Assembly: GCA_964626635.1 (NCBI GenBank)
Contig: CAZVFY010000001.1
Span: 47,782-111,781, forward strand
Direction: 5' to 3'
Source: an uncultured Candidatus Saccharibacteria bacterium
Lineage (GTDB): Bacteria; Patescibacteriota; Minisyncoccia; Phycocordibacterales; UBA918
Length of the DNA stretch: 64,000 nt
Of this stretch, positions 34,822 through 62,802 are shown one piece after another (positions within the stretch are counted from its first letter, which is position 1; each line of letters begins with the position of its first letter). Below the pieces are notes generated by a model. It saw nothing but the letters and a program-made list of their open reading frames with translations, ran no database searches and was not told the DNA's origin. The position numbers were made by a program, and so were the translations under genes.

Positions 34822-34824
34822 ACG

Positions 34825-42203: not shown

Positions 42204-42656
42204 TTACCAGCTTTGCAGTGATTCTGAGTAAGTAACTGCTTGATTATCCGTATTAAAAAAGCCGATTTCATATTGATACATGTAGTACATCAGTCCTGCC
42301 GCCGCTACAGTAAATGCGCCCACGATAACAAAAATGTACTGGGCTATTACCATATGGTTCCAATTTGTTTCTGGCTCAGCAAAACTTGTTGACTCTACAT
42401 TAATATGTAGCAGTTCAGCAATTTCATGGGGTTGTAGTGTTTCACTGCTAGAAAATATTTTATGCATCCCATCAGCGCGTACTTCTTTGGTGATATTATT
42501 TTCGCGGAGTACGGTCAAGGCTGTGTCTACTTCATCCTGATTAAATCTCGCACTAATTAGCACTGACTTGATATGTTCGTCAGGCGCTGTTTGATCAAGT
42601 CCGTTGATTTTAAGAATGGTTTCGATTTGTTGGCGCGAGATCATAGCTAGAGTCAT
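42204..42656 (-). CDS. Hypothetical protein with C-terminal TM helix
   Basis: 150 aa. Soluble N-terminal domain, then IAQYIFVIVGAFTVAAAGLMYYMY. Confidence 0.4.
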   Translation of the reverse strand: MTLAMISRQQIETILKINGLDQTAPDEHIKSVLISARFNQDEVDTALTVLRENNITKEVRADGMHKIFSSSETLQPHEIAELLHINVESTSFAEPETNWNHMVIAQYIFVIVGAFTVAAAGLMYYMYQYEIGFFNTDNQAVTYSESLQSW

Positions 42657-44571: not shown

Positions 44572-45837
44572 TTAGGTGTCAGTAGTGTCGACCCGGAATC
44601 CCGGTGGCTCGTAATATTCGGTGACTGCAAAATTTTCGGTCATTGATAAATATATTCCCCACACCATTAACAACCCGAGAGCGACCACCGCAGCACTCGC
44701 TGCTAGTAACAAGCGATTGTCACGCAGCCATTTAAGGCGACGATGCTGAAGCGTAGCGCCTTCATCGTCGGAACGTAGATCAAGTAGATCAGCCCCAGGG
44801 CCTGAAGCGTTCGTGGGCGCAGTTCTGCGGTGAGCCATGCGCTTTAAGTCGGGCGTAATGCCTGAAAGGCGCAACATCCGTCTGATGTAGTACCGCACCG
44901 CCAATACGACTAACCCCACCAATCCACTAATCAGCACGGAGCCGAGCAGCAAACCGCGCCAGGGTATTATCCAGAAGTGTGTTTCGGCAGACATAAACTG
45001 CCTTGATTCAGAGCCGTATCCAAGTGTCAAGGCAGCCGTGTGGCGACCAAAATGTGACAGCTGCCAATCACTCGACCAATTAATCACATACTCGCGAGTG
45101 CTACTAGCCAGCACATTACCAAACTGGCTATTGCCGCCGATCTCGATTCTGGTGTGCTCATTACCCCACATATCGGTCACTGTTATGTCACCATCTGGTT
45201 GCAAATGGACATTGCCAGTATTTTTGACGCGGACAGAAAAACTAGTGTCAGGCGCTGCATAAATCAATTGAGAAGTAATAAACTCGCGCAGGCGAGCCTC
45301 CTCGATAACGCCGCCGCCAACGGTCAACAACACCAGAGACGTCACCACCTGGGCCGTCTCGAGCCTGGACACCTGCGCCCCAGAGTCTGGTGGACGAGTA
45401 CCGACTAGCAAGGCAGCGTAGTGCCCTCCTGGTGGTGCGTCGTCTGGCACGTTTATGGAAAACGGCACCTGTGCCACCGCACCCGGTTTGATGGTGTGCA
45501 TGAGTTCTGGAATGGTGATCCATTCGGCGATGGTGTTGCCAGGCTCATTTTGGTCCAAGATCGGCAACAACTCGCCGGTTCCCTGTTCGCCTACCGGAGC
45601 AAAATTAACTGCTTCGACGTAGACCGTGATCGGATACTCATTAGCATTAATCACGCGCAACTGACTCCGAAATGGTACGCCAGGCACCGTATCCGCGTTG
45701 AACATCGTCGGTGTCACACTGAGCACCTGCGACGACTGCGCGCCGACCGCGCTCACCCCAACCGCACTGAAACTAGCCAGCAGCAGAACGCCAAAAATAG
45801 CGTACCTATTAATTATTATTTGCCAGGTCAATGTCAT
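44572..45837 (-). CDS. Secreted / C-terminally TM-anchored surface protein (signal peptide, beta-sandwich ectodomain, TM, cytoplasmic tail); DUF916/DUF3324-like architecture
   Basis: 421 aa. Signal peptide ending VGAQS, ectodomain, TM LLLGSVLISGLVGLVVLAV, basic tail, second C-terminal hydrophobic segment. Confidence 0.45.
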   Translation of the reverse strand: MTLTWQIIINRYAIFGVLLLASFSAVGVSAVGAQSSQVLSVTPTMFNADTVPGVPFRSQLRVINANEYPITVYVEAVNFAPVGEQGTGELLPILDQNEPGNTIAEWITIPELMHTIKPGAVAQVPFSINVPDDAPPGGHYAALLVGTRPPDSGAQVSRLETAQVVTSLVLLTVGGGVIEEARLREFITSQLIYAAPDTSFSVRVKNTGNVHLQPDGDITVTDMWGNEHTRIEIGGNSQFGNVLASSTREYVINWSSDWQLSHFGRHTAALTLGYGSESRQFMSAETHFWIIPWRGLLLGSVLISGLVGLVVLAVRYYIRRMLRLSGITPDLKRMAHRRTAPTNASGPGADLLDLRSDDEGATLQHRRLKWLRDNRLLLAASAAVVALGLLMVWGIYLSMTENFAVTEYYEPPGFRVDTTDT

Positions 45838-46801
45838 GATCTTTGGTTTCGTGATCGCGGTTAGTGCCGACGTACATCGCTACCGACTCGCCGTGTTCAC
45901 TGTTATCTGTCACTGCGCGCGTTCGCAGTAAAGAGAGTAAGAGTAGTAGTACGGCTAGCATGCCAACGCCAAGAACTAAGAAAATCCACCATGGCACCGC
46001 TAGGAACGATGTCGACGCGAACACCGTTGCGCGTTGCTCGCCATACGTGAGGAGCGCGTTGGCTGACACTCGCCCGGCCGGGACAGTGTCGGGGAGCGGT
46101 ACTGTCAGTACCAACTCTTCGCTCACGCCAATTATTTGGTCATAGGTGTTAACTGGCGCCGCCGCGATCTCGCGACCGCGCGCGTCATAAAAAACTACTT
46201 CGCCTTGCGGGTTGATAGCGCGTTGGCCTTCATTAGTGACAGTTAGTGTCAATGTTTTATCAGACTCATCAAACACAAAGCGATCGCTTTCGAGAGCTGC
46301 GATCCTGATACTCTCGACCCGGGTGTCGGGCACGGTGACCTTGAGGATCAGTCCTGGCGCGTCACCGGCTAGCGCAGCTGCTTCGGCTATTGCGCGATTA
46401 CTGGCTTGTGTCAAACCAATAAACGCGTGGTACACACCCGGCGGTGTGTTGGGGTGGGTCTGGACGGTCAGTGGGATCGCGGTTGTTTCACCGGCTGGCA
46501 AGCTAATCCGACCGCGGTTGATGCTGATCCAGCTAGTGACATCGGTCTCGCGATCCGTCATCACTGGTGGTACGAACTCGCTGATGCTGCCGGTATTGTC
46601 GATGGCGATTTGGTTGACGGTGGCGTACAGTGTTGCGGTGCGACTGTCATAACTGTTGCGCAGGGTGATGTCGCGAGTGACAGACTGGCGTGGCTCAATT
46701 TCTATGTCAATTAATCGGGGTGCGATAGATACATCCGCTGATGCTGGTATAGTTCCAGCAATCCATAATGCCGCGATTAGTGGTGGGTACCGCAATTTCA
46801 T
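45809..46801 (-). CDS. Secreted / C-terminally TM-anchored surface protein, same architecture as the neighbouring 44572..45837 gene
   Basis: 330 aa. Signal peptide (AALWIAGTIPASA), ectodomain, TM WWIFLVLGVGMLAVLLLLLSLL. Confidence 0.45.
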   Translation of the reverse strand: MKLRYPPLIAALWIAGTIPASADVSIAPRLIDIEIEPRQSVTRDITLRNSYDSRTATLYATVNQIAIDNTGSISEFVPPVMTDRETDVTSWISINRGRISLPAGETTAIPLTVQTHPNTPPGVYHAFIGLTQASNRAIAEAAALAGDAPGLILKVTVPDTRVESIRIAALESDRFVFDESDKTLTLTVTNEGQRAINPQGEVVFYDARGREIAAAPVNTYDQIIGVSEELVLTVPLPDTVPAGRVSANALLTYGEQRATVFASTSFLAVPWWIFLVLGVGMLAVLLLLLSLLRTRAVTDNSEHGESVAMYVGTNRDHETKDHDIDLANNN

Positions 46802-46817: not shown

Positions 46818-49800
46818 TTAGAATGCTGGCGCTGCGATGTAGGCCACATCGGTCGCGTACTCACCGGCTGGTTGGAGCGCTGTCACGCTCGCGCGATAGA
46901 CCACGTCATGGGTGTCGACGGTTTTCTGGGCTGAATACATAATTTCTTGTGGCGTCGTATGAAGTGCCGCGTAAGCATCAGTCGGCGCGAACCGCGTCGA
47001 GCCACCCGACAGCGTGCCGTCAGTGGTGTGATATCCCACACAGCCAGTACCACTGCTAGAACAGGCACTGGCCCATCCAGCCGGCGCATTGTTGGTGCTG
47101 GTGATGTTGGCAATACTGTTACCACGTCCATCGATTAGTCCGCTGCGAGCGTACTTGTACACTCGGTAGCCATCAGTCGCGTTCGTGTCGATTACCAATC
47201 GTTGTGCCGCAATCACATCAGACCCCAGTGGTATTGATCCAAACCGGACGCCGTCGGCTGTCGTCGAAGCTGTTGTCGTGACGCCAGCAGTGGTGGTACC
47301 GCTCGGTACGCCATTAATGGTAAAGGTAAGGTTTGCGCCGTCAGAAACCAGTGAGGGGTAGCTCGCCCCATTGGCGAGCGAGACCGGCCGGCCGCGACCA
47401 ACGTCGTACAGCCGGAAATAGTAGACAATATTGGGGCGCAAGGCGGCTGGACTGATCGTAAACGAGTACTCTTGGGCTGCGCTCGCGGTGTGCGTGTGTC
47501 CGGTGACATACGCTCCAGCGCTATTATGCCGACCACAACCGCTACCGACGCTACTACTACAACTATCGGCACTCGCCAAGAGCGCAGTCGTGATAAGAGT
47601 GTTGTCGGACACAGCACCAGTATCGTAGCACCAGGGATCAGCTAGGGTACAGGTTCCAATCGGATTCAGTGTGTCCGCACTGCTAAAATCCGCCAGTGTT
47701 GAGACTTGCAGCGCGAACTTGGTGTCGACTCCTTCGACGTTTTTGGTTTCTGGTACCACTATTCGCAGCGCTAGTGTCGAAGAAGCACCAATGTCAGTCG
47801 GGGCGGTGTCGGGGTTTGCTCTTGGCTGCACTGGCGTTTCAGTTGCAGAGTCTTGATACCAACGCCACTCGCCAATCGCGGGTGAGAAATCTGCGGTACG
47901 CAACTGCGGATAATGTAAATAGCCGCGCAAGGGTGTCCCGCCACGCTCAACCATGCGGAAACAATATGGTGTATCAATAGCGGCGCCGTTATTTTCAAGA
48001 TACCAATCGTACTCGACCTCCTCTCCGTCAAACACGCGATAGGTATTGGATGCTGTGTCATTCTGCTGCTCGAGCGTACCGGCCACATCCGACACTGACA
48101 ACAGCAACTCACCAGACGTAGGCGGATCAGTCGACAACACATCGCCATCAGTCGTATTTGTCGAAGCATGCCCGCGCCAAATAGTGCTAGCCGCAGTGCC
48201 GCCCACGTCGCTCCAGGTCGCCACGGCACTACAGGTCGTTACCCGCTCGGCAAACTGCAACGTAAAGCGAACGAAGTCTTCGGGCAGGTTCGCGTTGCGC
48301 GCCTCAATTGACATCCGCAAGCGCAACACATCCCCGACGCCTGGCGGTTTATCGAGATCGGTGATCGAGGTATTTTCACCGAGGTCAACAGCCCCCGCTG
48401 GCCACGGATCGCTCGGCGTCAGTTGGTCATTATCGTCGTACCACCGATAGTAGCTTTGCTGGTATTGCAAATCAGCGATTGGCCACTGCACTAATTCGAC
48501 TTGGTAATACAACGTTTCACCAGTATCACTACGCCAAATTGCGTAAGTGGTGGGGTTAATAATTTTAAGGCCAGCAATCGAGCGTGGGTGGGCGTTATTG
48601 GTACCGTCAGCTGCGCTACTACCGAAAATCGACGCATTACTCACCGCTGATAGTGTGTCGGAAATACTGAGTGAAGACAGTAACGGCTCAGAGCCGCCCC
48701 GCATCGAGCCGCTTTGGCGTTCAACTTTCATGGCGCCAGGGCCTGTCTGCGTGTTGGCGATAACCCAGGCGACACCAGTGTGCGTATTGGTCATGTCCGC
48801 GTCGGCTGCGAGGCGGAACGAGACCGCACCGATACTAGACATGAACACTTCGTGTCCATGTGACGCAACCAGTGAATTACCAGTCATGCGCTTTTGCGGG
48901 TGCAAGAATGTCTGGGACAATGCGGGCACCGCGGTGATGCTCGCGGTCTCGGTCGTGCCAGCCTGAGTGTACACATGCTCGACACGATCAATTTGCCAAT
49001 TGAAGCCGGTGTATTCAACCACCGCATAACTGACAAAGGCAGTCACCCCAAGGGTGGCCGCTCGAGTAAATTCTGGTACATCGAGTGTCTCATTCCAGTC
49101 GCTCGTGAACTGCGTCGTATGGAAATCATTGGCCGTGTCGTCTCCCCCAATCCCAGTGATGAATACCACTACATCTGCATCATCTGCAATCGTGACACTT
49201 GGCCCAGCGACGGTGGTATCACCAAGACCAACCGACACCACCCCGACGTCGCGCACGATCATTTCGTTATCGGTGGTAGGTCGACCAATAAATTCAATAA
49301 TCTCCCAATCAATCCTCGTTTCATTAAGGTTTATGTCTCGCGTAAACGTAATACTAGTGTCCAGATTGTCGGGATTCTGAATGTAGGCAGTGACCTCCTC
49401 GACGTCTTGTGAGCCACCGCCATTAATATCGCCGGCTCCAGTGTGATGGGTGTTGGTAATACGAATAAATGCAGTGCCAGTTGCCGCTGGCGGCGTGTAG
49501 TCGGCACCAGCGGTGATGGTCGTATTTAAGCCCGTCAAGACAGTTGTACCACGCTGCGTCTTAAAGTCTTGTTTGGCAGACATAATGATCTGGGGGTATT
49601 GCTCGTAGCCTTCGAGTGCTTCATTATTGGCCACCAGTCGGAAGCAATAGGTGGCTTCGAATGCAGTCGCGTTCGTACTGGTCAAGCTAAACTCATACTC
49701 AATAAAAGTGTCTGCGGCGAGCGAGATTGCGCTCGTGCTGGCCGAAGATTCTCGTACCCCGTCGATACCGACGAACGTGGGTTCCCGGTCTGCGATACCG

Positions 49801-52800
49801 CCGTCTGCAATTGCAATATTGGTAGTTGCCTCATTGTGTGTCAGATTCACAGAATTGTTCATATCCCACTCATCACCAGCTACCGCATTGACCGCAATCC
49901 AAGTGTTTGCCAGAGCACTGCAAGAGCCAACTTGCTCGGCAAACTGTAATTGATACACGGTACTCGGGGCAGTGGCGCTACCGGCGTTGTGTACTCCCAT
50001 ACGTAATCGCACTGGCGTCGTTTGGTCAAAGCCATCAATGGCTGTGTTCTGCGTACCGTTCGTGTATGACGTCGCCCCAGTCTCTGACCCATCGTCGTTA
50101 CGCCAGTGGTAGTTCCCTTGCGTTAGCTCGGCCGCCTCGATCACTGTCGCACCCACCAGTGCAACGGGGGTCGACGGCGAGACTGACGCGCCGCCGGCTG
50201 CCACGTCAGCGGCCGGCGAGTCTATCTGCAGTTCAATTGTTTGGCCGTCCCTAACGCCATCTGCCACATCAGCAACGACGTACACACAGGCGGTCGCCTC
50301 TGTGGTGATGGTGAGAGATCCGCTGAAGGTTGAAGAACCATTTGCCGCTGGAAAACCGTTAGCATCCGTCGCACCAAATTGCGACTCAGTCCCAGCGTAT
50401 GATTCGCTGGCGCAGTTGTATGGGCTGCTGGTATCGAGATCATAAAACAGTGATACATTCGTCAGGTTTTGAGCATCGATCGTTCCTATTTCGGTCAGGG
50501 TCAGACTGCTGATGGTCTGACTCACGGCATTTGATCTGATCGCGAATGTACCGCCGAGGTACTGGCCAGTGCTGGGTGCCGTGAGAGCGGCTGCTTGCGT
50601 ACCGATAGCTGCCACTGATACATCGGCGTTGATCGTGACTTGGGGGTAGTTAGTGTAGGCGATCAGCGGTTCGTTATCTTTGACTAAGCGAAAACAGTAC
50701 GTGTTCCCTTCGACCGCACTGGCGGTAGCTGTCAGCGAGTACTCTAACTCTACAAAATCATTGGTAGTAAGGGTGTAACTACCACTGGTGTCGCTCGTTT
50801 CTAGGACGGCGCTATTAGGCGATCGGAAGTTGGTGTCGGCATCAGTAATCCCACCACTGCCGACAGCAATATTGGTCGTGTCAGATCCATGGGTCAGGTT
50901 TGATGAATCAAACATCGCAAACGCATCACTAGCGGCCCCAACGGCAACCCAACCGGTGACGAGGTCGCAAGTGGTGGCCGCTTCGGCAAATTGCAGTTGG
51001 AAGGATCCTGAATCGCTCGTGACAGACCCTTCGTTTGACACCCCGACGCGCAGTCGCAGTTGACCACTCGGTGTCAGCGATGAAAATCGCGTGTTCTCAG
51101 CCCCGCCAGTTAGAGATGTGGCGGTTGTTTCTGAACCGTTGTCACTCCGCCAATGGAAGTTGGTCTGGGTTACATCAGCGCCGACCAAGGCGGTCGTCCC
51201 AGTGATGGCTACTGGGCTGGCAGGAAACGCATCGCTACCGGTCACTCCAATATCAACTGTTGGGTCAGTAATCTGCACAGTAAACGTTTCCCCGTCCGGC
51301 GCCAGGCGGGTGGTATCAGTGATAACATAGCCACAAAATGTCGCTGTGGGACTGATGATCACCGCTGCTCCACCAAACGTCACCGTCCCGTCAGCTGCGA
51401 ACCCGTCTGTGGCAGTAGCACCAAACTGGACTTCGGTGCCGGCGTACGACTCGCTTTCGCAGTTGTAGGGACTAGTGATATCGAGCTCGTAAAATAGTTT
51501 GACGTTCTCGAACGCTGCGCCGACGGCATTAGTGCCCGTTGCGGTTACCGTAATACTTGATAAGGTATTGGTAAATAGACTGCTGATGGCGATCGCGCCA
51601 CCGACGTACAGATCAGCACGCTCGGCCCGTAACAGTGTGACTTGCGAACCAGTGGTGCTGACAACTGTGTCAGGGCCGATGTTGTCGAGCGTCTCGCCGA
51701 ACCGATCGTCCGTCGCTGCTTCCCACCAAGTAACATAGAGTCGTTCGGTGTTACTCGGATCAAGGGCGGGTTTGCGAATATCGCCAGCGGTGGTATTAAC
51801 TGGGCCCTCTTCCCCACCCCAGCTTGTCATGGCGTCAGTCGACCGCTGCCAGTATATATTGGCAGAACTAGCCGTACCGCCGGTGTCTTGGACTGTATAC
51901 GCAGCGTACACATTGCCATTATTTTGATCGATTGCTAATGACACATCGACAATACCGCGACCAGTTGCATTGCTGAGGACGTTGGCCATTTGCGACCAAC
52001 TGCTGCCATCATAGACGGCGGTTTTAATGTCATCATTGTTATCATTTAGAAAATTGTGATCCGTCACATACGCGAGATAGATGTGTCCATTGCTATGATT
52101 GATCATGCCTGACATACCACCATCGTACTCAGTACTTTCGGCAATGCCTGAGTCAATGGTTGTCCAAGTGCTTGACCAGCTGCTGCCATCCCAAATTTTG
52201 CTGCGTAGCGTGTTGGCCGATACATCGCGATTAATTAACATGATGTCGTCGTTATCAAGCGGCAACAGCAGCGTCGGGTCAGGGCTATTATCGAGTGGAT
52301 TGGTACCAGCTTCGACCCAATTCGAACCGGTGTTGCAGTTGGCTGTACAGCGCAAGACATAAGACTCGATCGGGCTATTGTTCGGCTGATTGTCAGTCAC
52401 CGCTGCGTACAACACTCCGTCCGTACCTTTGGTAAGCGTTTGTAAGTTTGCGGCTGAACTGAATGTCGTGACCTGTCCGGTCGGGCTCGAAATGTTGATC
52501 GGGCTGGTGCCGAGGAGTCGCGTGTCGGTCGATGTATCCAGCCGATTATAGAACAGACTGTCGGTATTGGTGTCCATGGTCAGGATGTGAATGTTGCTGC
52601 CAGTATCGTCAGGCGTCCAGCCGTCGTACCAGACCACAATCCTGATGCAGTCAGACTGAGCGTCCACTACTACCGCACTTGACCAAGTGGCACCGGCATC
52701 GGTTGACTTGCTGTAGACACAGCCACCATTGCGATCCCGATAAAACGCGTACCCAGTTTGATCAGTTATAAATACCGTTTGCGCCCCAGTGCTGTTGTTG

Positions 52801-52964
52801 GTGCGAGCTGTTGTACTAGTGTTGTCATCGATGATCACGACCGCTGCTCGAGCAAGTGGCACCCCACCGAACACACCCAGTCCCAGCAACTCGAGAATAA
52901 GTGCAGCAATAATACTGCCACTAACACAGTAGCGTACACAGGGAAAAAAGCGCAGTACATCCAT
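46818..52964 (-). CDS. Giant secreted protein: N-terminal BNR/Asp-box (sialidase-like) beta-propeller region plus four copies of an unrecognised ~190-aa Cys-pair repeat
   Basis: 2048 aa. Signal/TM N-terminus. Asp-box-like SKSTDAGATWS, QRSTDAMTSWG, DGSSWSS(T/Q). Repeats start (F/Y)HWR.DDGSE and end YCFR(L/M)V...Y.(N/Q)YPQ. Confidence 0.7.
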   Translation of the reverse strand: MDVLRFFPCVRYCVSGSIIAALILELLGLGVFGGVPLARAAVVIIDDNTSTTARTNNSTGAQTVFITDQTGYAFYRDRNGGCVYSKSTDAGATWSSAVVVDAQSDCIRIVVWYDGWTPDDTGSNIHILTMDTNTDSLFYNRLDTSTDTRLLGTSPINISSPTGQVTTFSSAANLQTLTKGTDGVLYAAVTDNQPNNSPIESYVLRCTANCNTGSNWVEAGTNPLDNSPDPTLLLPLDNDDIMLINRDVSANTLRSKIWDGSSWSSTWTTIDSGIAESTEYDGGMSGMINHSNGHIYLAYVTDHNFLNDNNDDIKTAVYDGSSWSQMANVLSNATGRGIVDVSLAIDQNNGNVYAAYTVQDTGGTASSANIYWQRSTDAMTSWGGEEGPVNTTAGDIRKPALDPSNTERLYVTWWEAATDDRFGETLDNIGPDTVVSTTGSQVTLLRAERADLYVGGAIAISSLFTNTLSSITVTATGTNAVGAAFENVKLFYELDITSPYNCESESYAGTEVQFGATATDGFAADGTVTFGGAAVIISPTATFCGYVITDTTRLAPDGETFTVQITDPTVDIGVTGSDAFPASPVAITGTTALVGADVTQTNFHWRSDNGSETTATSLTGGAENTRFSSLTPSGQLRLRVGVSNEGSVTSDSGSFQLQFAEAATTCDLVTGWVAVGAASDAFAMFDSSNLTHGSDTTNIAVGSGGITDADTNFRSPNSAVLETSDTSGSYTLTTNDFVELEYSLTATASAVEGNTYCFRLVKDNEPLIAYTNYPQVTINADVSVAAIGTQAAALTAPSTGQYLGGTFAIRSNAVSQTISSLTLTEIGTIDAQNLTNVSLFYDLDTSSPYNCASESYAGTESQFGATDANGFPAANGSSTFSGSLTITTEATACVYVVADVADGVRDGQTIELQIDSPAADVAAGGASVSPSTPVALVGATVIEAAELTQGNYHWRNDDGSETGATSYTNGTQNTAIDGFDQTTPVRLRMGVHNAGSATAPSTVYQLQFAEQVGSCSALANTWIAVNAVAGDEWDMNNSVNLTHNEATTNIAIADGGIADREPTFVGIDGVRESSASTSAISLAADTFIEYEFSLTSTNATAFEATYCFRLVANNEALEGYEQYPQIIMSAKQDFKTQRGTTVLTGLNTTITAGADYTPPAATGTAFIRITNTHHTGAGDINGGGSQDVEEVTAYIQNPDNLDTSITFTRDINLNETRIDWEIIEFIGRPTTDNEMIVRDVGVVSVGLGDTTVAGPSVTIADDADVVVFITGIGGDDTANDFHTTQFTSDWNETLDVPEFTRAATLGVTAFVSYAVVEYTGFNWQIDRVEHVYTQAGTTETASITAVPALSQTFLHPQKRMTGNSLVASHGHEVFMSSIGAVSFRLAADADMTNTHTGVAWVIANTQTGPGAMKVERQSGSMRGGSEPLLSSLSISDTLSAVSNASIFGSSAADGTNNAHPRSIAGLKIINPTTYAIWRSDTGETLYYQVELVQWPIADLQYQQSYYRWYDDNDQLTPSDPWPAGAVDLGENTSITDLDKPPGVGDVLRLRMSIEARNANLPEDFVRFTLQFAERVTTCSAVATWSDVGGTAASTIWRGHASTNTTDGDVLSTDPPTSGELLLSVSDVAGTLEQQNDTASNTYRVFDGEEVEYDWYLENNGAAIDTPYCFRMVERGGTPLRGYLHYPQLRTADFSPAIGEWRWYQDSATETPVQPRANPDTAPTDIGASSTLALRIVVPETKNVEGVDTKFALQVSTLADFSSADTLNPIGTCTLADPWCYDTGAVSDNTLITTALLASADSCSSSVGSGCGRHNSAGAYVTGHTHTASAAQEYSFTISPAALRPNIVYYFRLYDVGRGRPVSLANGASYPSLVSDGANLTFTINGVPSGTTTAGVTTTASTTADGVRFGSIPLGSDVIAAQRLVIDTNATDGYRVYKYARSGLIDGRGNSIANITSTNNAPAGWASACSSSGTGCVGYHTTDGTLSGGSTRFAPTDAYAALHTTPQEIMYSAQKTVDTHDVVYRASVTALQPAGEYATDVAYIAAPAF
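47340..48467. repeat. Two further diverged B-type repeat copies (B3 ~47895-48467; B4 ~47340-47873)
   Basis: Boundaries approximate. B3: YYRWYDDNDQ...LRLRMSIEARN...FTLQFAERVTTC...YCFRMVERGG...YLHYPQL. B4: WRWYQDSATE...LALRIVVPE...FALQVSTLADF...YYFRLYDVG...SYPSL. Confidence 0.45.
49575..50567. repeat. Intragenic supra-repeat copy 2 (A2 + B2 modules, residues ~800-1130)
   Basis: Boundaries approximate. A2 (FYDLDTSSPYNCASESYAGTESQFGATDANGF...) and B2 (GNYHWRNDDGSETGATSYTNG...YCFRLVANNEALEGYEQYPQI). Confidence 0.5.
50625..51602. repeat. Intragenic supra-repeat copy 1 (A1 + B1 modules, residues ~455-780 of the giant protein)
   Basis: Boundaries approximate. A1 (FYELDITSPYNCESESYAGTEVQFGATATDGF...) and B1 (TNFHWRSDNGSETTATSLTGG...YCFRLVKDNEPLIAYTNYPQV) are repeated in copy 2. 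Confidence 0.5.
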
Positions 52965-52996: not shown

Positions 52997-54784
52997 TCAG
53001 TGCGTTGGTGTGCGTTGTGTACTAGATGCTTGATCTATTGGTGATTTAACAGCGCTATCGTCTGCGGCGAGACTAACGGAGGTGCTGGCAGAAAGATCCA
53101 GCTCGTATTCTGTCGTCACCGTGGTAGTGCTTGCGGGCTGCGCGACCCGCAGATCGAGAGTGCTCGGGCTACTAGTGGACGCCGGGCTACTGGTGACCGG
53201 ATCGCTTGTGTCGATTTCAGGCGTACTTGTGGAGGTCGTATCGTCAGTGCCTTGTACCTCTTTTTCTTGAATTTCAAGATCTTGTTCCATGGTGCTGCCG
53301 GTAAGCGCTAATGGTTGTCCAACCGGATCAGGGTTCGGCAATTCGCGCGCCGGAAGAGCTGGCTGAGCTCCCAGGGCAATTTGCTCACCGGTGGCAATGT
53401 CGACTGCTCGGGTGATACGGTCACCATTTTCAACCGTGTTGTATACGAGCGCAACACGCGGATTCTCGACCATTGCACCAGTCGGGTCGTCAATGTAGGT
53501 GAGCTGTTTGGTGTTGATATTGTAGGTGGCAATACTGCGCTGTACGTCAGACGAGAGATGAGTCCAAACGACTAAATCACCGGTGATATCAGGTGCAATA
53601 TTATCGGTATTAGATTGAGAAATAACTTCGGTGGTCCCGTCCCGAGCCAACACTATTTCCCAGCCAACGCCGGACCAACGCTGCCACACGGTATACGCTC
53701 CAGCCCGACTCGGTGAGAGATTATTGACGCGATCGCTGGTGAGATACGTTTCGGTATTGTTCGCAATATCGTACGCCACGATTTGGTAACGATCCTGCTG
53801 TAGTCGTTGCCAGACTACAGTGTTAGACAGTGGATCGTAGTGCGGAGCTTGGTCGTCATATGAGTTAAAAGTGATTTGCGTCCGTTCCTCATCAAGATAC
53901 AGTACGATCTCGGTATCTCCCTCGGTGTCAATCTCGGCGAACACGGTATCAGCAATGGTCGGCTCAGTTGTACCTACCTGACAAAAGAATGTTCCGCCAC
54001 CAGTTTCGACACAACGCTGCGGATCAAAACGAAGCTCGTTAGAGGACTGCTGCACAAACGTCATATCTTGGTCTATTTCAGTGTCGGTGCTAGTGGCAAT
54101 GTCGACCGATGGGAACTCATTGACTGAAACAGCTGCAGTGTCCGTTGCGGTCTGCGTTTCTGGTCTTGCGGAGACGATTGGTTCAGCACTGTCATTGACT
54201 GAGTCCTCAGCTGCATTTGTAGTGTTATTTGTACGTAAGTTTGTGGTTGTCGCCCTGTTCGCGTTTGAAGCTGCAGTGGGGGCGGCGTCAGCCACAGCAG
54301 CCGCAGTCTCGTCTGCAGTTTGGTCATCGACTGACTCTCCGAACGTGCTTGTATTGCCACCCTCTTGAACATTAGTTGGTTCTGTTTCGTCTACAATTTC
54401 GGTGGTTTGTTGTATAGATTCTGCAGTTTGGGAAGGCTGTGTATTCGGTTCAGTAACCTTATCAAGAGTGGATTCGGTGGTGACTAATTCGTCGTTACTT
54501 GCGGTAGGTTCTGCTATCACAGCCTCGGGCATCTCTTCAGGACTAACTGTTTCAGGCGCTGATGTAGGAGTATCTGATGGCGCAGGTACAGTTTTATTGG
54601 TGTCTGCTGCTACGACGGAATCATCGCTATCGGCATAGGCGGGCTGAGCATAAAGCGATGTTATCACACTCAGAATTAGCCCGATTGCTACGGCCCGAAT
54701 TATAAACTGCAACCAGGAAGAAACTGTCGATACCTCTGATATCTGGGCTGCCTCGTCTAATTTATATCGGTATTCACTTTTCAT
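52997..54784 (-). CDS. Secreted/membrane-anchored protein with acidic linker and a PD40/TolB-like beta-propeller-type C-terminal domain
   Basis: 595 aa. N-terminal TM/signal, long Thr/Glu/Asp/Ala-rich low-complexity spacer, repeated ...VW.R......YQIV.YD / VVWTHL... blade-like segments. Confidence 0.45.
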   Translation of the reverse strand: MKSEYRYKLDEAAQISEVSTVSSWLQFIIRAVAIGLILSVITSLYAQPAYADSDDSVVAADTNKTVPAPSDTPTSAPETVSPEEMPEAVIAEPTASNDELVTTESTLDKVTEPNTQPSQTAESIQQTTEIVDETEPTNVQEGGNTSTFGESVDDQTADETAAAVADAAPTAASNANRATTTNLRTNNTTNAAEDSVNDSAEPIVSARPETQTATDTAAVSVNEFPSVDIATSTDTEIDQDMTFVQQSSNELRFDPQRCVETGGGTFFCQVGTTEPTIADTVFAEIDTEGDTEIVLYLDEERTQITFNSYDDQAPHYDPLSNTVVWQRLQQDRYQIVAYDIANNTETYLTSDRVNNLSPSRAGAYTVWQRWSGVGWEIVLARDGTTEVISQSNTDNIAPDITGDLVVWTHLSSDVQRSIATYNINTKQLTYIDDPTGAMVENPRVALVYNTVENGDRITRAVDIATGEQIALGAQPALPARELPNPDPVGQPLALTGSTMEQDLEIQEKEVQGTDDTTSTSTPEIDTSDPVTSSPASTSSPSTLDLRVAQPASTTTVTTEYELDLSASTSVSLAADDSAVKSPIDQASSTQRTPTH

Positions 54785-54875
54785 CTCTAAAAGACACCAA
54801 ACAAATGGCGTATGTTTCCCTCACACCCTAATGGTAACACCAAGCTAAATGCTTTGCTGACCCTATTAACATTAC

Positions 54876-55616
54876 TTACTGCATGAAATAGCTCGCTAAA
54901 ATGATCGAAAAGTCCCTGAATGTCATCCGGTTATCGCCATCAAAATCCAGCGTTCTACTCTGACTGCTCCAAGCGCCCATAAAAGCACTGATGTCCCGCA
55001 GCGTCACCTGCCCGTCGCCATTTACATCAGTCGGCAGCTGTGCAAGCACGGCAGCCTCAATTGATTCGGAGTCTTCTGGGTCATACGCGATTAGCGTAAG
55101 TGCTCCTTCGTCCTGAGCGGCCGTGACAGCGGTTCCTTGCCCGTCTCCGGCAAATAATTGCACGTCATTCAGTTCAATATCACCAGCGCCAGTATTGATC
55201 ACTCGTAAATTTACCTCGATGATTTCGTGCGCACCAATAAAACCACGTCGGTACGTCCCTCCGGAGATGACTATTTCACCGTTGCGAGCTTCGGGTTCTT
55301 CGGTCCAGAGCGTAATGACAGATGAGCCTCGATTAATGTTGAAAACTTCAAATACCCCAGTATCAAAAGATAGGGTGGCCTCGACGGCATTAATTGGTAC
55401 CGTGGCATTCGCGCGCACTAATATCGGCACAATCTCACCCATGCTGACGACTTGTGTTGGAGTTGAGACCACCACCGTTGAACCTTGACTGCCACTAGTC
55501 AATGCCAGCGCTGACGCGATTGCTACTGACCCCAGCACCGTTGGAAATACGTAGCGCACCGTTCGACTTCGTTGGCGCCGGAATATGAAACTAAATCGCT
55601 GCAGGAACTGGCGCAT
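54876..55616 (-). CDS. Cohesin-like domain protein with C-terminal dockerin (type I-like duplicated Ca-binding segment)
   Basis: 246 aa. Signal/TM, then a cohesin-like block (PINAVEATLSFDTGVFEV...SSVITLW...GEIVISGG). C-terminal DVNGDGQVTLRD...DFDGDNRMTFRD dockerin repeats. Confidence 0.6.
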   Translation of the reverse strand: MRQFLQRFSFIFRRQRSRTVRYVFPTVLGSVAIASALALTSGSQGSTVVVSTPTQVVSMGEIVPILVRANATVPINAVEATLSFDTGVFEVFNINRGSSVITLWTEEPEARNGEIVISGGTYRRGFIGAHEIIEVNLRVINTGAGDIELNDVQLFAGDGQGTAVTAAQDEGALTLIAYDPEDSESIEAAVLAQLPTDVNGDGQVTLRDISAFMGAWSSQSRTLDFDGDNRMTFRDFSIILASYFMQ

Positions 55617-55621
55617 ACCGA

Positions 55622-56320
55622 TTATAATGAGGTTAATTGTTGTCGCAGTGTATCGGTCTGTGTTTTTGCTAACTCTAATCCATCTCGGGCGTCTTGTACC
55701 CGACCCAATATAGCCACAATTGACTCAGAAGTGATGGTGTCTCCGGCCCGTAGTGCCGTGATGATTTCACCCTGTAGCCGCACGAGATCCGTAAACAATA
55801 CCTGCTGCGTTTGCTCTAGCTCAACCAGTTGTTCCCACTTAGCAATAGGTAGCGAGTATTCGTCTGACCCTTGCAGCGTGCGCAACTGGTCGGCGTACTG
55901 GGCCAGTATCTCTGTTTCGCGGTCTAATCTGGCTACCATTGCTGCTTTGCGCTCGGCATTAAATCCACCACAACGACTATGCAACTGCTCTACTTCGGCC
56001 AATTCGGCTGCATTCAATCCTCGGTCAAGTGAGCTCAGTAGACTGTTATAGCGACTGAGTTCTTGCATTGGGCAGTTTTGCACAATTGATTCCGTGACAG
56101 CATCAGCGCCATTGCGGGCTGTTATTTCGGCGATGCTAGACACCAACGCCAACTGGCCTAACAATTGATTCTGGATCACTTGCTCGGTCGCTTCGAGACG
56201 ATGGTTGGCGATGAACATTGCGATTACATACGCGATCAATAGTCCGCCGAGCAAGAATAACCAGGCTGTATAGCGATGTTTGTTTGCCTGACTAGTGTGC
56301 GACTGTGATGAATCTTGCAT
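55622..56320 (-). CDS. Membrane-anchored coiled-coil protein
   Basis: 232 aa. TM (WLFLLGGLLIAYVIAMFI), then heptad-rich Leu/Gln/Glu sequence. Confidence 0.4.
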   Translation of the reverse strand: MQDSSQSHTSQANKHRYTAWLFLLGGLLIAYVIAMFIANHRLEATEQVIQNQLLGQLALVSSIAEITARNGADAVTESIVQNCPMQELSRYNSLLSSLDRGLNAAELAEVEQLHSRCGGFNAERKAAMVARLDRETEILAQYADQLRTLQGSDEYSLPIAKWEQLVELEQTQQVLFTDLVRLQGEIITALRAGDTITSESIVAILGRVQDARDGLELAKTQTDTLRQQLTSL

Positions 56321-56329
56321 AATAATGTA

Positions 56330-58096
56330 TTAAGGGTTAGTAATGTCATCAATTTCGTCGTGGACGATATTGTCGTGCTTGTTGATGGTGTTAGTAATGG
56401 ATGTAATTAACGCTTGTTCACCTTTGGTGAGAGACTTAGTTTTGCGCGTCGCACGTAGCTGTTCTTCACCGTGACGGAGCACGCTGCGTAACTCGTTAAA
56501 GGCATCGGTCGCAGCCACATCCGCCTCGCCAGCTTCAATCGCGACCGTTTGTCGGTAACGTCGCATGCGCACATAGAGGAACACAAACAGAAACAGTACA
56601 AATCCGGATAGCACAATCAATGGCACAATGACTGACAATACACTGACGAGCCAACCACCAATCCGCAGATAGCCTGGTGGCTCGACCACAACGCGGTAGA
56701 TATCAGACAGTTCGCTAACCGACTGGAGCGGATCCGTGGCCAGCGCTGATAGTTCGTACACACCGTTCATGAGCGCACCATCAGGAATAAAGGCGAATGT
56801 ACCGTTCTCATCTGCTGTCACCTGATACACGTTTGGCTCGCCGCCAATTCGTTCCAAGAACACATCGACAACTGATCCAGGTCGAGTTGATCCGTACAAA
56901 ACCGGCACCACATCACTACTAATCCGGTCTGGTAGCGCGGTGAAAACTGGCTTGTCGAATGACTCAATAGTGAATGTGATAGTGTCGCTCGCGAGATTGC
57001 CAGCCTGGTCAGCCACCGTCACCATCACCGTCTGATCGCCTGGCGGTAGTGGGGGCAAAGTAATGGTGCCTGATGCGACTTCGGCTGCAGCTAAGATAAG
57101 CGGATCGTTGTTGTTGAAGCGTACCTGGTACTGGGCGATACCAGACCCTCCATCATTCGCTTGGACCAGCAGCGTTTGTGCCGCCGACCCCATATCCTCC
57201 CCGTCAAGTAGCAATACCGACACGTCAGTCGGCGCTACCGTGTCAATCGCCACGCGGTGATGCGCTACCCTTCCCCAACCATCGGCATTCCTAAACTGCA
57301 CGTGTAGATACTGCACTCCTTGGTCTAGCTCGATCAGGGAGAGGCGGCTGATCGGTGGCTCGTAGACGCGGGTAGGAATCGCGGTGGGCGCGTCACTGAG
57401 AAGGGTGCGCACAGCCGTCACATCATTCGGTAGCGCCCACTCGAATTCGGCGCTGGTGGTCGCATACCAGCCCTCGGCATCAGGGTGCGTAACCGACGTG
57501 ACTGAAGGCCGAGCCGGAGTATTGACTGGTGGCACATACTCGACAATCCGCTCTGGTTCTGGCGAGACTGATACCGCTTGGACAGTAAACGAGCCGCCGT
57601 TCATCGCCGTCAGTACATTCGTCCCCAGACCATCGTTTGCCAGCACAGCACCATTGGTGAACTCAACACGCTGAGTGCCGGCGGTCTTAGTGCGAAAGGT
57701 AACCGACAACACTGTCCCAGTCGATCCTGTGTAACCGGTTGGTACTCCACCACTAAATGACACTGTTCCGGCTGAATTATTGAAACTCGGTTCGCTCACC
57801 CACAAGTTAAAGATTGAGGAGCTGCGGTTGATTCCGACGACTGACAGCTCGTTGGGGTTAAATCGCAGCGTCCCTTCGGCGGCATTGATGGCAGCGCCGC
57901 CGGTCACTAACTGGATACGCGCAGTAAAAGTCGCACCGGGCTCGTACACCCCTGATTGCGGCGTGAGGCGCAGTTCGGCTGCCTGCGCCGCCACCGCGCC
58001 AGCGCTCATACCAAAACCTACTACTAACCAGAACATACCCGTTAGCAATAGTAACCAACTGATTCGTTTGAAACGCTTAATAGGTAGATTATTCAT
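56330..58096 (-). CDS. Cohesin-like domain surface protein with Ig-like middle region, C-terminal TM anchor and cytoplasmic coiled-coil tail
   Basis: Start placed at MNNLPIKRF (M64 of the listed ORF), giving an 8-nt overlap with the upstream gene. Signal peptide, cohesin-like block (INAAEGTLRFNPNELSV...SSIFNLW...GTVSFSGGVPTGYTG), TM LVSVLSVIVPLIVLSGFVLFLFVFLYV. Confidence 0.6.
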   Translation of the reverse strand: MNNLPIKRFKRISWLLLLTGMFWLVVGFGMSAGAVAAQAAELRLTPQSGVYEPGATFTARIQLVTGGAAINAAEGTLRFNPNELSVVGINRSSSIFNLWVSEPSFNNSAGTVSFSGGVPTGYTGSTGTVLSVTFRTKTAGTQRVEFTNGAVLANDGLGTNVLTAMNGGSFTVQAVSVSPEPERIVEYVPPVNTPARPSVTSVTHPDAEGWYATTSAEFEWALPNDVTAVRTLLSDAPTAIPTRVYEPPISRLSLIELDQGVQYLHVQFRNADGWGRVAHHRVAIDTVAPTDVSVLLLDGEDMGSAAQTLLVQANDGGSGIAQYQVRFNNNDPLILAAAEVASGTITLPPLPPGDQTVMVTVADQAGNLASDTITFTIESFDKPVFTALPDRISSDVVPVLYGSTRPGSVVDVFLERIGGEPNVYQVTADENGTFAFIPDGALMNGVYELSALATDPLQSVSELSDIYRVVVEPPGYLRIGGWLVSVLSVIVPLIVLSGFVLFLFVFLYVRMRRYRQTVAIEAGEADVAATDAFNELRSVLRHGEEQLRATRKTKSLTKGEQALITSITNTINKHDNIVHDEIDDITNP

Positions 58097-59234
58097 GCGA
58101 TTTAGGGCTTTGACTAGTCGGATCAGTGTTGTGATCATTCTCACTACTGCCAGGTTGTGCAGGTGACTGGTGTCCATCTGGATAGACTGAGTCAGCTGTA
58201 TCTGATTTGAACCCATCGTTCTTAGTTTCATGTGTCTTATGCGTACCATGAGCGATTTGAGTAGCTGGGCGTGGACGGCGCACAATGAGCGTAATCGCGA
58301 CCAGCAGTAATAGAAACGCCACGATGCCCATACCTAAATACAACAGAAATTGCTGATCAGACATTAAGCGCATTGACTCCTCCGGTAGCAGACTGGCGAC
58401 GTATTCATTGCCAGCCTTGTCAATTGCTCTTACCCGGATGACGCTATTGAGCGTCTGGTCTTCTAACACATACGGGCTACGAGCTGCCACCCACGGGGCG
58501 TCAGCCCGTCCCCACAGGAACGATCCAAACTGATCGAGCGGTTCTTCCATAACCTCGTAACGGTCAATCCCGGTCTGTTTGTCAGTAGTATTAAAAGAAA
58601 TGTAGTACCGACCATCAAAAGTCGTTTCGTCGCTAGTCAGGGTGATACTGAATGGGCGCGGGTCTTGAGTGTCTGCCGCCACTCGTCCGCTCCAGGCGTC
58701 AGTCACAAACTCGTTGGTGCTACTACCGATCCGGACAGTAGCTGAGAGCGTATCGAGATCAGCGTTCTGTCCCGTACCGTCATTGAGAAGTGCAACGGTG
58801 TCCGGTGTAAAACTAATGGTGCCGATTTCTTCATTCGTTTCTGCCGGAGTATCAGTGCGCACAATCACCTGAAATAAGGTGTTGGTGAGCCGCGGGTCAC
58901 CTGCGATCCGACCGCAGTACCCATTGGGGATGCCGCCAGCAAAACTCACTGACCGCGCATCGGACGAAATGGTCGGTGACTCGATCCACAACCCAAAGAT
59001 TGAATTGCCAAGCGAAACATCGATTGGCGTGATGGGGCCGCTGAACTGCAAGACACCGGACACGGCGTTAATACATTCGCCGGCTGCTTCATCGGTATCA
59101 ATTCGGACTGAGTACAGCACCGCGTCACCCCGCCCCAGTACAGAGTGCGCTGGGTCGACCGACAAGCTCGCTGCCTGCCCCATTGCCGGCAGCAAACACA
59201 CCACTGCTAGACCGCATAGTAAAAAGTTCCTCAT
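58089..59234 (-). CDS. Cohesin-like domain surface protein with C-terminal TM anchor
   Basis: 381 aa. Signal peptide (LLPAMGQAAS), cohesin-like block (INAVSGVLQFSGPITPIDV...NSIFGLW...SVSFAGGIPNGYCG), TM LGMGIVAFLLLLVAITLIV. Confidence 0.55.
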   Translation of the reverse strand: MRNFLLCGLAVVCLLPAMGQAASLSVDPAHSVLGRGDAVLYSVRIDTDEAAGECINAVSGVLQFSGPITPIDVSLGNSIFGLWIESPTISSDARSVSFAGGIPNGYCGRIAGDPRLTNTLFQVIVRTDTPAETNEEIGTISFTPDTVALLNDGTGQNADLDTLSATVRIGSSTNEFVTDAWSGRVAADTQDPRPFSITLTSDETTFDGRYYISFNTTDKQTGIDRYEVMEEPLDQFGSFLWGRADAPWVAARSPYVLEDQTLNSVIRVRAIDKAGNEYVASLLPEESMRLMSDQQFLLYLGMGIVAFLLLLVAITLIVRRPRPATQIAHGTHKTHETKNDGFKSDTADSVYPDGHQSPAQPGSSENDHNTDPTSQSPKSHE

Positions 59235-59352: not shown

Positions 59353-60477
59353 TTAGAACACAGGGGTGGCAACGTATGTCAATGTTGCCGTGTAGTCATC
59401 AGCAGCTTCTTGAAGCGGACTGATGTTTACTTGATAGAACACGTTAGTAACACCTGCTTCACCGCTACCATCAGTCGGTCCAGTGTGTCGCATGACCTCG
59501 ACTGGCGTGGTAGATGCAGCTACAAAACTTTCTCCACTGTTGAAATCCAATGTTGTAGTGGTGTCAGTTGAGGTAAGACCCCAGTGACCCCATTGGTTTT
59601 CATCTGTGGTTGAACCGCCTGGATCAGACCAACTTTGTGGGGTGCTCACATAAGTACCGTCAGCAAAACTGTCAATATCTGCACCATTGGCTGATGTCAA
59701 CTGCTGGTCAGTAGCTACAGTCACTACAAATCCATTAGCGGCATTAGTTTCGACTGTCAGACTTTGCGCACCGCTTACATCAGTTTCTGGTGCTAGTTCA
59801 CCAAACGGAATTGAAGTTGGTGTTGTAACTACTGTGGTGGTTGGTGAATCGGCAGTTTTCGTGTCAATTCCTAGCCCACCAATTTCGAAGTTGAAGATTG
59901 TATCGACAGTAGCTGTGACGACAACGCGATCAACGATCGAGACTCTGGTCTCACCACTGTCGTCACTACCAGCAGTTAGGTTGATTGCATACGAGCCAGC
60001 GGCTGGGTTCGTAATCTGGTTGGTGCCAGTGCTACCGTCAGTAGCATTGGTACCAACCTCAATTGTTACCTCTGTACCCGTAGCAACTGCAGCTGTACCG
60101 TTAGTGAAGGTCAGGACTTGACCACTGACGCCAAAGCCCCAGGTTGTACCAGAAGGACTAGCTGCAACTGTGGCATCGGTACCATCAAGAGCAACGTCAA
60201 CATCTGCTGGCACAATACTACCTATATCACTAAATCCAGCTGGATACGTAAGTGTGATAGCTTCACCCGCAGCAAGCTCTGATGGCAGTGTAAAGGCAAG
60301 TGTTTGATTTGATCCTACACTTGGCGCACTGTCCGACAGAGTATTGCTAAATTCTGTGACATTTGCGGCTGCTGCAAACCGCATTGTTGGGAACCCGAGT
60401 GACCATAGAATGATCGAGATCGAGGCCACCGCAGCAATAGCTTGGAGTACTGTGAACGTGTATGACGTCCTAGACAT
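59353..60477 (-). CDS. Secreted Thr/Gly/Ser-rich protein (possible major surface subunit)
   Basis: 374 aa. Signal peptide (AAVASISIILWSLGFPTMRFAAAA). No TM anchor. Own terminator and a 270-nt upstream intergenic region. Confidence 0.45.
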   Translation of the reverse strand: MSRTSYTFTVLQAIAAVASISIILWSLGFPTMRFAAAANVTEFSNTLSDSAPSVGSNQTLAFTLPSELAAGEAITLTYPAGFSDIGSIVPADVDVALDGTDATVAASPSGTTWGFGVSGQVLTFTNGTAAVATGTEVTIEVGTNATDGSTGTNQITNPAAGSYAINLTAGSDDSGETRVSIVDRVVVTATVDTIFNFEIGGLGIDTKTADSPTTTVVTTPTSIPFGELAPETDVSGAQSLTVETNAANGFVVTVATDQQLTSANGADIDSFADGTYVSTPQSWSDPGGSTTDENQWGHWGLTSTDTTTTLDFNSGESFVAASTTPVEVMRHTGPTDGSGEAGVTNVFYQVNISPLQEAADDYTATLTYVATPVF

Positions 60478-61851: not shown

Positions 61852-62802
61852 TTACTTCCTGCTTCTAGTCTTGCGGCGGGCAAACAGCAGATACAGAACA
61901 GCGATAATTACGGCAAAGATTGGTAGCAACACTGATATCTTGTGCGCCATAGACAGCCCAACAAAGCCAAATCCAGCCGCCTGAACAGTGCCAGCTGGTT
62001 GAATAGTCAGCGTTAGGTCTCCCTGTTGCTTGAGTTCGTCTTCATTAAAAATCTGGTATCGAGCAATGTAGCTACCGGCTGGCAATCGGGTGGGTATCTC
62101 GGCAGTTACAGTGTCAGTACTATAGGGGTCGATCTCATCGACCCCGTTAATGTTGTTCGTTTCTTCGAGCAGCACTTCACCCACTCGGTCAAAAATCCTA
62201 AATTCGGTTCGAGACGGAGCAATTGGTACGTTACCAGTGTTCTCGATCAGCATATCGAACTGGATCTTACCGGGAAAGAACAACCACGCAAGTTTAGAAC
62301 CTTCGTTCAGTTCAGCCACTGAAATTTTGCGTACTCTAAAATCTTTGATCTGTTTATCTATTACCTGCAGATCGATATCGACGATTGCCCCCAAAGAAAT
62401 ATTTACCGCACCCCGAGAGAGTGTGTCACCATCAGGTACAGTTCGGATACGAATTGTGCCTTCGTAATCCGTGAACTCGGCGTCAGCTGGTACATTGACT
62501 TGCACGGTAATCGGAGTTTTCTGGATACCTGGTTCCAGTCGGACACGGTTTCCTTCTATTACTTGGATCCAACCTTCTAGTTCAGGTGCGTCAATGCCAA
62601 CTTCTGCCACCTGCGCCACACTAGGGTCGCTACGGACCAACAGGATCTGTTGCTCGTAAGTAGAATTACGCGTCAAACTAGTGTTGCGCACATACGGTGG
62701 AGTAATACCAAAACCAGCCAAAGCCAGCTCGGCAGTAGCCAGCCAGATTATTGCTGCCCCACACAGCAACAAACGCAAGATCGTACCTCGAGAGAACGTC
62801 AT
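61852..62802 (-). CDS. Secreted / C-terminally TM-anchored surface protein (third member of the signal-peptide/ectodomain/TM architecture)
   Basis: 316 aa. Signal peptide (LATAELALAG), ectodomain, TM VLLPIFAVIIAVLYLLFA, then RRKTRSRK tail. Confidence 0.45.
   Translation of the reverse strand: MTFSRGTILRLLLCGAAIIWLATAELALAGFGITPPYVRNTSLTRNSTYEQQILLVRSDPSVAQVAEVGIDAPELEGWIQVIEGNRVRLEPGIQKTPITVQVNVPADAEFTDYEGTIRIRTVPDGDTLSRGAVNISLGAIVDIDLQVIDKQIKDFRVRKISVAELNEGSKLAWLFFPGKIQFDMLIENTGNVPIAPSRTEFRIFDRVGEVLLEETNNINGVDEIDPYSTDTVTAEIPTRLPAGSYIARYQIFNEDELKQQGDLTLTIQPAGTVQAAGFGFVGLSMAHKISVLLPIFAVIIAVLYLLFARRKTRSRK

Follow-up and report, generated by a model that had tools for sequence, protein, structure and literature searches.

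How does a bacterium of the candidate phyla radiation (CPR) hold a secreted protein of 2048 amino acids (aa), and what would such a protein do? The question is raised by a 6147-nt open reading frame (ORF) at positions 46818-52964, minus strand, of a 64,000-nt stretch of DNA, here called the window, from an uncultured Candidatus Saccharibacteria bacterium (GTDB lineage Patescibacteriota; Minisyncoccia; Phycocordibacterales; UBA918; assembly GCA_964626635.1, contig CAZVFY010000001.1, positions 47,782 to 111,781 of the forward strand). The ORF encodes a protein, hereafter the giant, whose family is known so far only as 'hypothetical protein'. The giant is a real and widely conserved secreted CPR protein, built mostly of beta-sandwich modules that are missing from Pfam. 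Since its gene adjoins genes for membrane proteins related to those that anchor the WxL surface complexes of Gram-positive bacteria, the protein is most likely anchored to the wall, as a surface stalk or as an adhesin. The first-pass annotation of this DNA had singled out the ORF for its repeats and for a possible sialidase-like propeller; the M domain, the C domain, the sharing of the latter with a small neighbour and the WxLIP-like neighbours were not covered there.

From N- to C-terminus, the giant consists of a signal peptide or signal anchor, an N domain, an A1-B1-A2-B2 array, an M domain, a B3-B4 pair and a C domain (all features of the window named here and below are on the minus strand). 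The hydrophobic residues 1-40 (52845..52964), which in the translation end in ...PLARA with Ala as the next residue, are the least conserved part of the protein (22% identity to orthologues). They are followed by the N domain, a putative beta-propeller head with BNR/Asp-box-like repeats (residues 41-429; 51678..52844), which was recognised by its motifs and a sub-threshold match to Pfam BNR_2. The A1 module (430-597; 51174..51677) was recognised by its hhalign match to A2, the latter (783-946; 50127..50618) by BLAST of protein chunks and hhalign, and the intervening B1 module (598-782; 50619..51173) by hidden Markov model (HMM) boundaries and its hhalign match to B2 (947-1132; 49569..50126), itself placed by HMM boundaries. 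The conserved, all-beta M domain (1133-1500; 48465..49568) has 43 invariant positions and was characterised from an AlphaFold2 model of residues 1133-2048. B3 (1501-1692; 47889..48464) and B4 (1693-1877; 47334..47888) were assigned by hhalign against B1/B2 and B1-B3, respectively. The C domain (1878-2048; 46821..47333), which ends in ...YIAAPAF, was identified by phmmer and HMM matches to a 374-aa neighbour and is the proposed anchoring or docking domain. In profile-profile comparisons with hhalign, based on 36 orthologues, N, A, M and C were mutually unrelated and none of them was related to B.

The anchoring question leads to the neighbours of the giant. WxL clusters of Lactobacillales and Bacillales always encode WxL proteins of two kinds, small and large, and a DUF916/DUF3324 protein with a transmembrane helix; the large protein carries its WxL domain at the C-terminus, behind a chain of mostly Ig-like domains, and the WxL-interacting protein (WxLIP) has been proposed to hold WxL on the wall by insertion of a beta-hairpin (PMC9772566, PMC10599100). 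More than 91% of known WxL sequences are found in Firmicutes (PMC9772566), and no paper linking WxL or WxLIP with CPR was found in the literature searched. In the window, a 330-aa protein with a signal peptide, two Ig-like domains and a C-terminal transmembrane helix is encoded 16 nt downstream of the giant (45809..46801) and matches Pfam WxLIP_PGBD with E 0.0067. Its paralogue of 421 aa (44572..45837; BLASTP against the 330-aa ORF, E 2.6e-8), the gene of which overlaps the end of the 330-aa gene, has the same layout of signal peptide, paired Ig-like domains and transmembrane helix at the C-terminus. A more distant third copy, of 316 aa and also with a C-terminal transmembrane helix, lies at the upstream edge of the locus (61852..62802) and was detected with an HMM of the CPR proteins, hereafter LIPs, with E 9.5e-10.

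For comparison, seven genuine DUF916/DUF3324 proteins from Enterococcus, Listeria, Lactiplantibacillus and Lactococcus plasmids served as the WxLIP reference. Against this set, hhalign gave 95% probability for the 330-aa family (E 2.5e-8, 303 columns) and 91.7% for the 421-aa family (E 7.6e-7), rising to 97.1% (E 7.6e-11) when the two families were pooled, with unrelated controls at E ≥0.06. The alignment spans 301-303 columns from signal peptide to transmembrane helix, or 238 columns in the realigned output. Pfam WxLIP_PGBD (DUF916) matches 35 of 60 LIP orthologues, with a best E of 6.8e-7, and the best match of the LIP profile among 177,635 PDB sequences is EfmWxLIP1 (9i25_C, 9i1y_A; E 0.01). 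At the level of sequence profiles, the homology of the 330-, 421- and 316-aa neighbours to Firmicutes WxLIP is therefore regarded as proven. The linkage of these genes to the giant recurs: a LIP gene was found within 1.5 kb downstream in 59 of the 71 giants with enough downstream sequence, a count that includes paralogous loci with other heads and two tandem-giant loci. The LIPs themselves vary, the 421-aa copy of the window being matched by proteins of about 550 aa in most orthologues (e.g. L002:17053-18705), and a LytR_C domain was matched in 23 of 60 LIP-family sequences, with no LytR_C match in the window copy.

The second element of the comparison is the C domain. The 374-aa secreted protein encoded at 59353..60477, which is collinear in most loci, carries the same domain at its C-terminus (residues 190-374, ending in ...TYVATPVF). 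Residues 1879-2048 of the giant and 195-374 of this small protein match in phmmer with E 4.2e-11, and a C HMM made from giants only finds the 374-aa ORF with E 5e-26. The locus thus resembles the WxL clusters (Csc, and the Swp/Lwp/DUF916 loci of Enterococcus faecium; PMC9772566, PMC10599100, PMC1534035) in that a small and a large secreted protein have a C-terminal domain in common, that the large one is a chain of beta-sandwiches with the special domain last, that adjacent genes encode WxLIP homologues with a signal peptide, two Ig-like domains and a transmembrane helix, and that the genes are co-oriented and tightly spaced. Here they form a packed block of ~18 kb, with gaps of 32 and 16 nt between the giant and its neighbours and an order that is collinear in most of 78 related loci. 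Of the features by which WxL clusters have been defined (Hassan & Williamson 2022/2023), the locus encodes a WxLIP protein, and small and large secreted proteins sharing a C-terminal domain.

There are also differences. The host is a CPR bacterium and not a member of the Firmicutes; there are three LIP genes and neither an LPxTG protein nor a sortase in the present locus; at about 18 kb the locus is much larger and holds cohesin-/dockerin-like proteins; and the large protein has 2048 aa as against 500-1000 in WxL clusters. The shared domain, moreover, is not demonstrably the WxL domain PF13731 with two Trp-x-Leu motifs that the published definition names. A pattern likeness (FG...; L.V.TNA..GY.V against V.V.D.RG..GW.L; AG.Y..TLTY against Y.TTLTW) had suggested that C might be a WxL domain, but this identification is unsupported and was rejected because the shallow-profile E of 0.008 weakened to 0.07 with deep profiles.

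Several results weigh against assigning the locus to this type and the giant to a host-specific adhesin. No match to PF13731 was obtained in 66 C-domain members. In hhalign, C and WxL scored E 0.008-0.012 with shallow profiles (12-16 WxL sequences) and E 0.071 with deep ones (132 WxL and 232 C-domain sequences), the latter inside the range of the controls (E 0.09-0.68, one at 0.004). Both Trp-x-Leu motifs are absent from C, the corresponding positions reading GYxV and TYVAxP, and the best structural matches to the C-containing model do not include the solved WxL chain 9i25_A. The small protein is encoded five genes upstream of the giant, whereas the published definition allows four. Finally, conservation along the giant is even, at 42-55% identity per region, and such near-equal conservation of every domain is unusual for the head of a host-specific adhesin. 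Together, it is suggested that the locus is WxL-cluster-like: its WxLIP homologues are secure at the sequence level, while the partner domain C is unproven and may be analogous.

On this basis, an even chance is given to the giant being the large subunit of a WxL-cluster-like surface complex, with C docking on a LIP, a stalk in the middle and N as the head. In the proposed mechanism, the giant would be exported by Sec in a Paceibacteria-type CPR cell, its domains being stabilised by intradomain disulfides. The mature protein has 20 Cys, none of which varies across the 36 orthologues and which are even in number within each domain, among them Cys 502 and 544 in A1 and Cys 851 and 893 in A2; this is consistent with disulfides of this kind. 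The C domain would then dock non-covalently onto the membrane-anchored WxLIP-like proteins of 330, 421 and 316 aa. The M-B3-B4 base together with A-B-A-B would make up a long stalk of nine domains, all of them beta, with N held at its distal end, away from the cell; the probable ligand of N is a glycan, carried by a partner or host cell or by the bacterium's own envelope. Downstream of the LIP genes, a membrane-anchored thioredoxin-fold protein (AhpC/TSA-like; 44027-44569), conserved at this place in 46 related loci, may be an extracytoplasmic disulfide helper.

A different use of the same parts, to which a low probability is attached, would be a fibre assembled by donor-strand exchange, pilus-like or resembling TasA and the bundling pili. 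The C domain of the 374-aa protein would then mediate polymerisation, that of the giant would join it to the fibre at the tip or as a decoration, and the LIP-like proteins would serve as base or chaperone. The appeal of this reading lies in the sharing of C by a small and a large protein, as in major and tip pilins, and in the precedent of the TLP-1 fibres, which assemble by donor-strand exchange and are of unknown producer (PMC11494351). The AlphaFold2 model of residues 1133-2048 (M-B3-B4-C, 916 residues), for which the window fragment was aligned with full-length proteins from the homologue search, is all-beta with regular strands and a predicted local distance difference test (pLDDT) score of 90.3. 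In Foldseek, its matches include integrin alpha legs, PrgB, antigen I/II, CFA/I pili, mastigonemes and A2M; these are generic long arrays of Ig domains with very low TM-scores and are not assignable to single domains. Similarity to donor-strand fibres (TLP-1 pond fibrils, 9ikk; archaeal bundling pili; TasA-like) likewise could not be assigned to a domain of the giant, although such fibres were absent from the matches listed for the B2 model alone, and strand insertion of the WxLIP type would yield the same structural signal. No N-terminal donor strand was identified, and the locus has neither an usher nor a dedicated signal peptidase. With fibrillar adhesins such as antigen I/II, PrgB and the pilins of pilus shafts, the giant shares all-beta tandem domains, these proteins being among the structural matches of both of its models, and the occurrence of B in long tandem arrays in other proteins; it differs from them in lacking LPxTG or a sortase and in that Pfam has no entry for the sequence families of its A, B, M and C.

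How widely and how faithfully the giant is retained can be judged from its relatives. A homologue search returned 79 proteins, most of 2045-2060 aa, with 41-58% full-length identity and from many independent assemblies; all 79 have four B modules at the same positions, and the few with names, from Candidatus Paceibacterota or Kaiserbacteria, are annotated as 'hypothetical protein'. When one genome was scanned for each species, 230 relatives came to light, every one in a metagenome-assembled genome of Patescibacteria, and 54 retrieved relatives share the exact N-A-B-A-B-M-B-B-C order. Departures from this order consist of one or three A-B units, a doubled N or another N-terminal head, with the M-B-B-C base retained. 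In two loci (L010, 9653-22512, and L015, 7819-20248), a giant with the N head and another with an M-like head lie in tandem ahead of just one pair of LIP genes.

This constancy could also be that of a structural, S-layer-like component of an envelope or sheath, with an architectural role and no part in adhesion. A length of about 2047 aa and a domain order that both hardly change among many species, the uniform conservation of all domains including the head, the usual presence of one main copy per locus, and cohesin-/dockerin-like partners in the same locus would all suit such a component. The explanation is nevertheless held to be rather improbable: the swapped or duplicated heads of paralogues and the tandem giants of some genomes fit variable ligand binding better.

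If the giant is a stalk with a head, the nature of the N domain becomes central. The Asp-box motifs that had been reported were located at residues 87-94 (STDAGATW) and 375-382 (STDAMTSW), with DGSSW at 259 and 319; the first is canonical and the second degenerate. An internal blade repeat is represented by one pair (hhalign E 8.5e-6). BNR_2 (PF13088) is the only Pfam family matched: it was found in 19 of 37 orthologues with a best E of 3.7e-7, whereas the whole giant of the window scored 18.4 bits and its N domain alone 25.6 bits (E 9.2e-6), below the gathering cut-off of 31.4. Among PDB sequences, the N profile had seven matches, all of them sialidases and all to single blades, with E from 0.012 (NanB) to 1 (sialidase-1). 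The sialidase-like propeller of the first-pass annotation is weakly supported. In its favour, N has a canonical SxDxGxTW Asp-box and a blade-like periodicity, and sialidases and BNR proteins such as NanB are its only matches; the score under the Pfam cut-off and the alignment of just one or two blades set it apart from them. N is likely a beta-propeller as judged from its sequence.

Whether N might be an active sialidase-like enzyme, making the giant a surface-displayed glycosidase on a stalk, depends on the same evidence. Sialidases as the only PDB sequence matches, BNR_2 as the only Pfam family and a set of conserved arginines (R408 invariant; R246, R254 and R314 nearly invariant) speak for this prospect, which is nonetheless considered quite improbable, all N matches lying below curated thresholds and covering single blades only. 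BNR propellers are, moreover, often non-catalytic.

The repeats that follow N were assessed by BLAST of 100-aa chunks of the giant against the remainder of the same protein and by hhalign. The reported ORF with its repeats and the A1B1-A2B2 duplication are well founded: residues 429-781 recur at 778-1131 with E values down to 1e-26, most chunks being 41-53% identical, and hhalign aligned A1 with A2 at E 2e-70 and B1 with B2 at E about 5e-85. The B-half recurs once more at about 1503-1690, with BLAST matches of residues 603-693 and 952-1045 to 1506-1608 (E 8e-10 and 1e-7) and hhalign matches of B1/B2 to B3 at E 1e-17 to 1e-22. B4 is detected from B1, B2 and B3 at E 7e-9 to 4.5e-12 and is therefore a real, if diverged, B copy, so that both extra copies proposed near the C-terminus were recovered. 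The boundary check that had been recommended placed B with a repeat HMM at 598-782, 947-1132, 1501-1692 and 1693-1877; the earlier size of ~190 aa for B agrees with the refined ~185 aa, whereas that of ~140 aa for A has to be raised to ~165 aa. The idea of two conserved Cys per B module holds for most copies but not all of them: the pair, in a TC ... YCFR context, is present in 497 of 636 B instances from relatives, and copies of the B4 type have Tyr or Phe in place of the second Cys, plus four other Cys (1772, 1779, 1802 and 1810 in the giant, where YYFRL replaces YCFRL). A faint BLAST similarity of M (1367-1425) to C (1929-1989), with E 0.009, was rejected, hhalign of M against C giving E 0.36. 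The worry that the repeats reflect assembly collapse or expansion can be dismissed as having next to no probability, since nothing was found in its favour, the copies are too diverged at 41-53% identity for mis-assembly, and more than 50 orthologues from separate assemblies have the same length and architecture, with their four B modules at identical positions.

The B module itself had been placed outside the known domain families, and sequence searches agree. No match to Pfam-A (2025 copy) or NCBIfam was obtained for B in the window protein, nor to Pfam in 24 orthologues or in proteins made nearly entirely of B; a B profile found nothing significant among PDB sequences (best galectin, E 0.19, and CBM32, E 0.45), and the whole-length giant profile had no PDB sequence match. 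The structure prediction that had been proposed as a check qualifies this picture. An AlphaFold2 model of the B2 copy, built from a 43-sequence alignment, is all-beta (pLDDT 95.8, predicted TM-score 0.91), and its beta-sandwich can be superposed on Ig-like, FN3 and CARDB-type members. The fold class is thus familiar, yet no curated sequence family claims the module. As modelled, B is an Ig-like sandwich core with ~80 residues of elaboration and without a close solved or curated relative. Neither Pfam nor PDB sequence matches were obtained for the A module or the M domain, and a C profile had only weak matches among PDB sequences (best E 0.01). The Pfam copy that was searched contains none of the four families A, B, M and C.

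As to its role, B had been regarded as a possible new extracellular binding module, which was not supported: long tandem arrays and the alternation with A resemble the way in which the stalks of fibrillar surface proteins are built. When 1.84 billion representative proteins (clusters at 50% identity) were searched exhaustively with an HMM, 4814 B-module proteins were obtained at E ≤1e-3 and 2819 at E ≤1e-10, with tandem arrays of up to 13-21 copies. Because of these long arrays (13-21) and the alternation with A, B is regarded as a putative stalk or spacer rather than as an established binding module. Proteins of 10-21 tandem B modules were met in P0087 and P0088-P0090; the first of these, from Chloroflexota (MFC1925596.1), has 13 B copies after a prepilin N-terminal methylation motif. 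B thus appears, from this sequence, to be used in pilin-like giants outside CPR as well.

Within the co-oriented block, the order of genes begins with the 316-aa protein (transmembrane), a 365-aa protein (DUF4215, Big_6, dockerin), the 374-aa small protein and a 381-aa protein (cohesin-like, transmembrane), and continues with proteins of 651 aa (cohesin-like, Big_13), 232 aa, 246 aa (cohesin and dockerin) and 595 aa, followed by the giant. The 330- and 421-aa LIPs, the thioredoxin-fold membrane protein and an AI-2E transporter come next, and then housekeeping genes. Between the small protein and the giant, five genes of the same orientation encode proteins that are secreted or in the membrane (381, 651, 232, 246 and 595 aa; 52997..59234); they were characterised by Pfam, pairwise similarity and conserved order. 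Cohesin-/dockerin-like modules occur in four neighbours (54876-55616, 56330-58285, 58089-59234 and 60752-61849), where matches to Pfam Cohesin and Dockerin_1 are near threshold and mutual BLAST reaches E about 1e-14; these similarities hint at a cohesin-dockerin-type assembly on the CPR cell surface. The 595-aa protein, directly upstream of the giant (52997-54784), has an N-terminal transmembrane segment, acidic low-complexity stretches rich in Thr, Ser and Glu, and a repeat-like region with W-Q-R and Y-D motifs that is propeller-like, and it has no Pfam match. The AI-2E family transporter is encoded near the LIP genes at 42610-43716, and another adjoins the WxL cluster of a Listeria innocua plasmid (L081, 3638-4807); the proximity in both is probably a coincidence. 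Elsewhere in the window, another surface-protein unit (33481-37708), upstream of uvrB, consists of a 763-aa secreted protein with bacterial TSP3 repeats and Big_13 that is encoded between a histidine kinase and a response regulator, and an adjacent pair of tRNA-Ala genes with anticodons GGC and TGC lies at 28207-28403.

Attachment to other cells is the presumed lifestyle of Patescibacteria, yet hardly any of their surface proteins are annotated, and about 80% of the 2048-residue giant is invisible to Pfam. Epibiotic growth needs several adhesins, as seen in the one genetic study available (PMC10633639). The present analysis is of use for domain annotation and provides a testable anchoring hypothesis in CPR surface biology, the function of the giant being putative. 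The B family, with at least 4814 clusters at 50% identity and reaching a Chloroflexota protein, is a worthwhile new domain entry. The WxLIP homologues extend to CPR a WxLIP-linked system that was described as largely restricted to Firmicutes, and they offer a testable explanation of how a giant protein may be held on the wall in a phylum whose locus encodes no sortase-anchored proteins. More tentatively, and with the balance somewhat against it, A, B, M and C may be four undescribed domain families that build a CPR-wide surface organelle, with C as a new WxLIP-binding anchor whose relation to WxL is either absent or no longer recognisable. If this were true, WxLIP-based, sortase-independent anchoring of giant surface proteins would be ancient and common to Patescibacteria and Firmicutes, and the giant would serve Paceibacteria as a conserved device for host contact or for the envelope.

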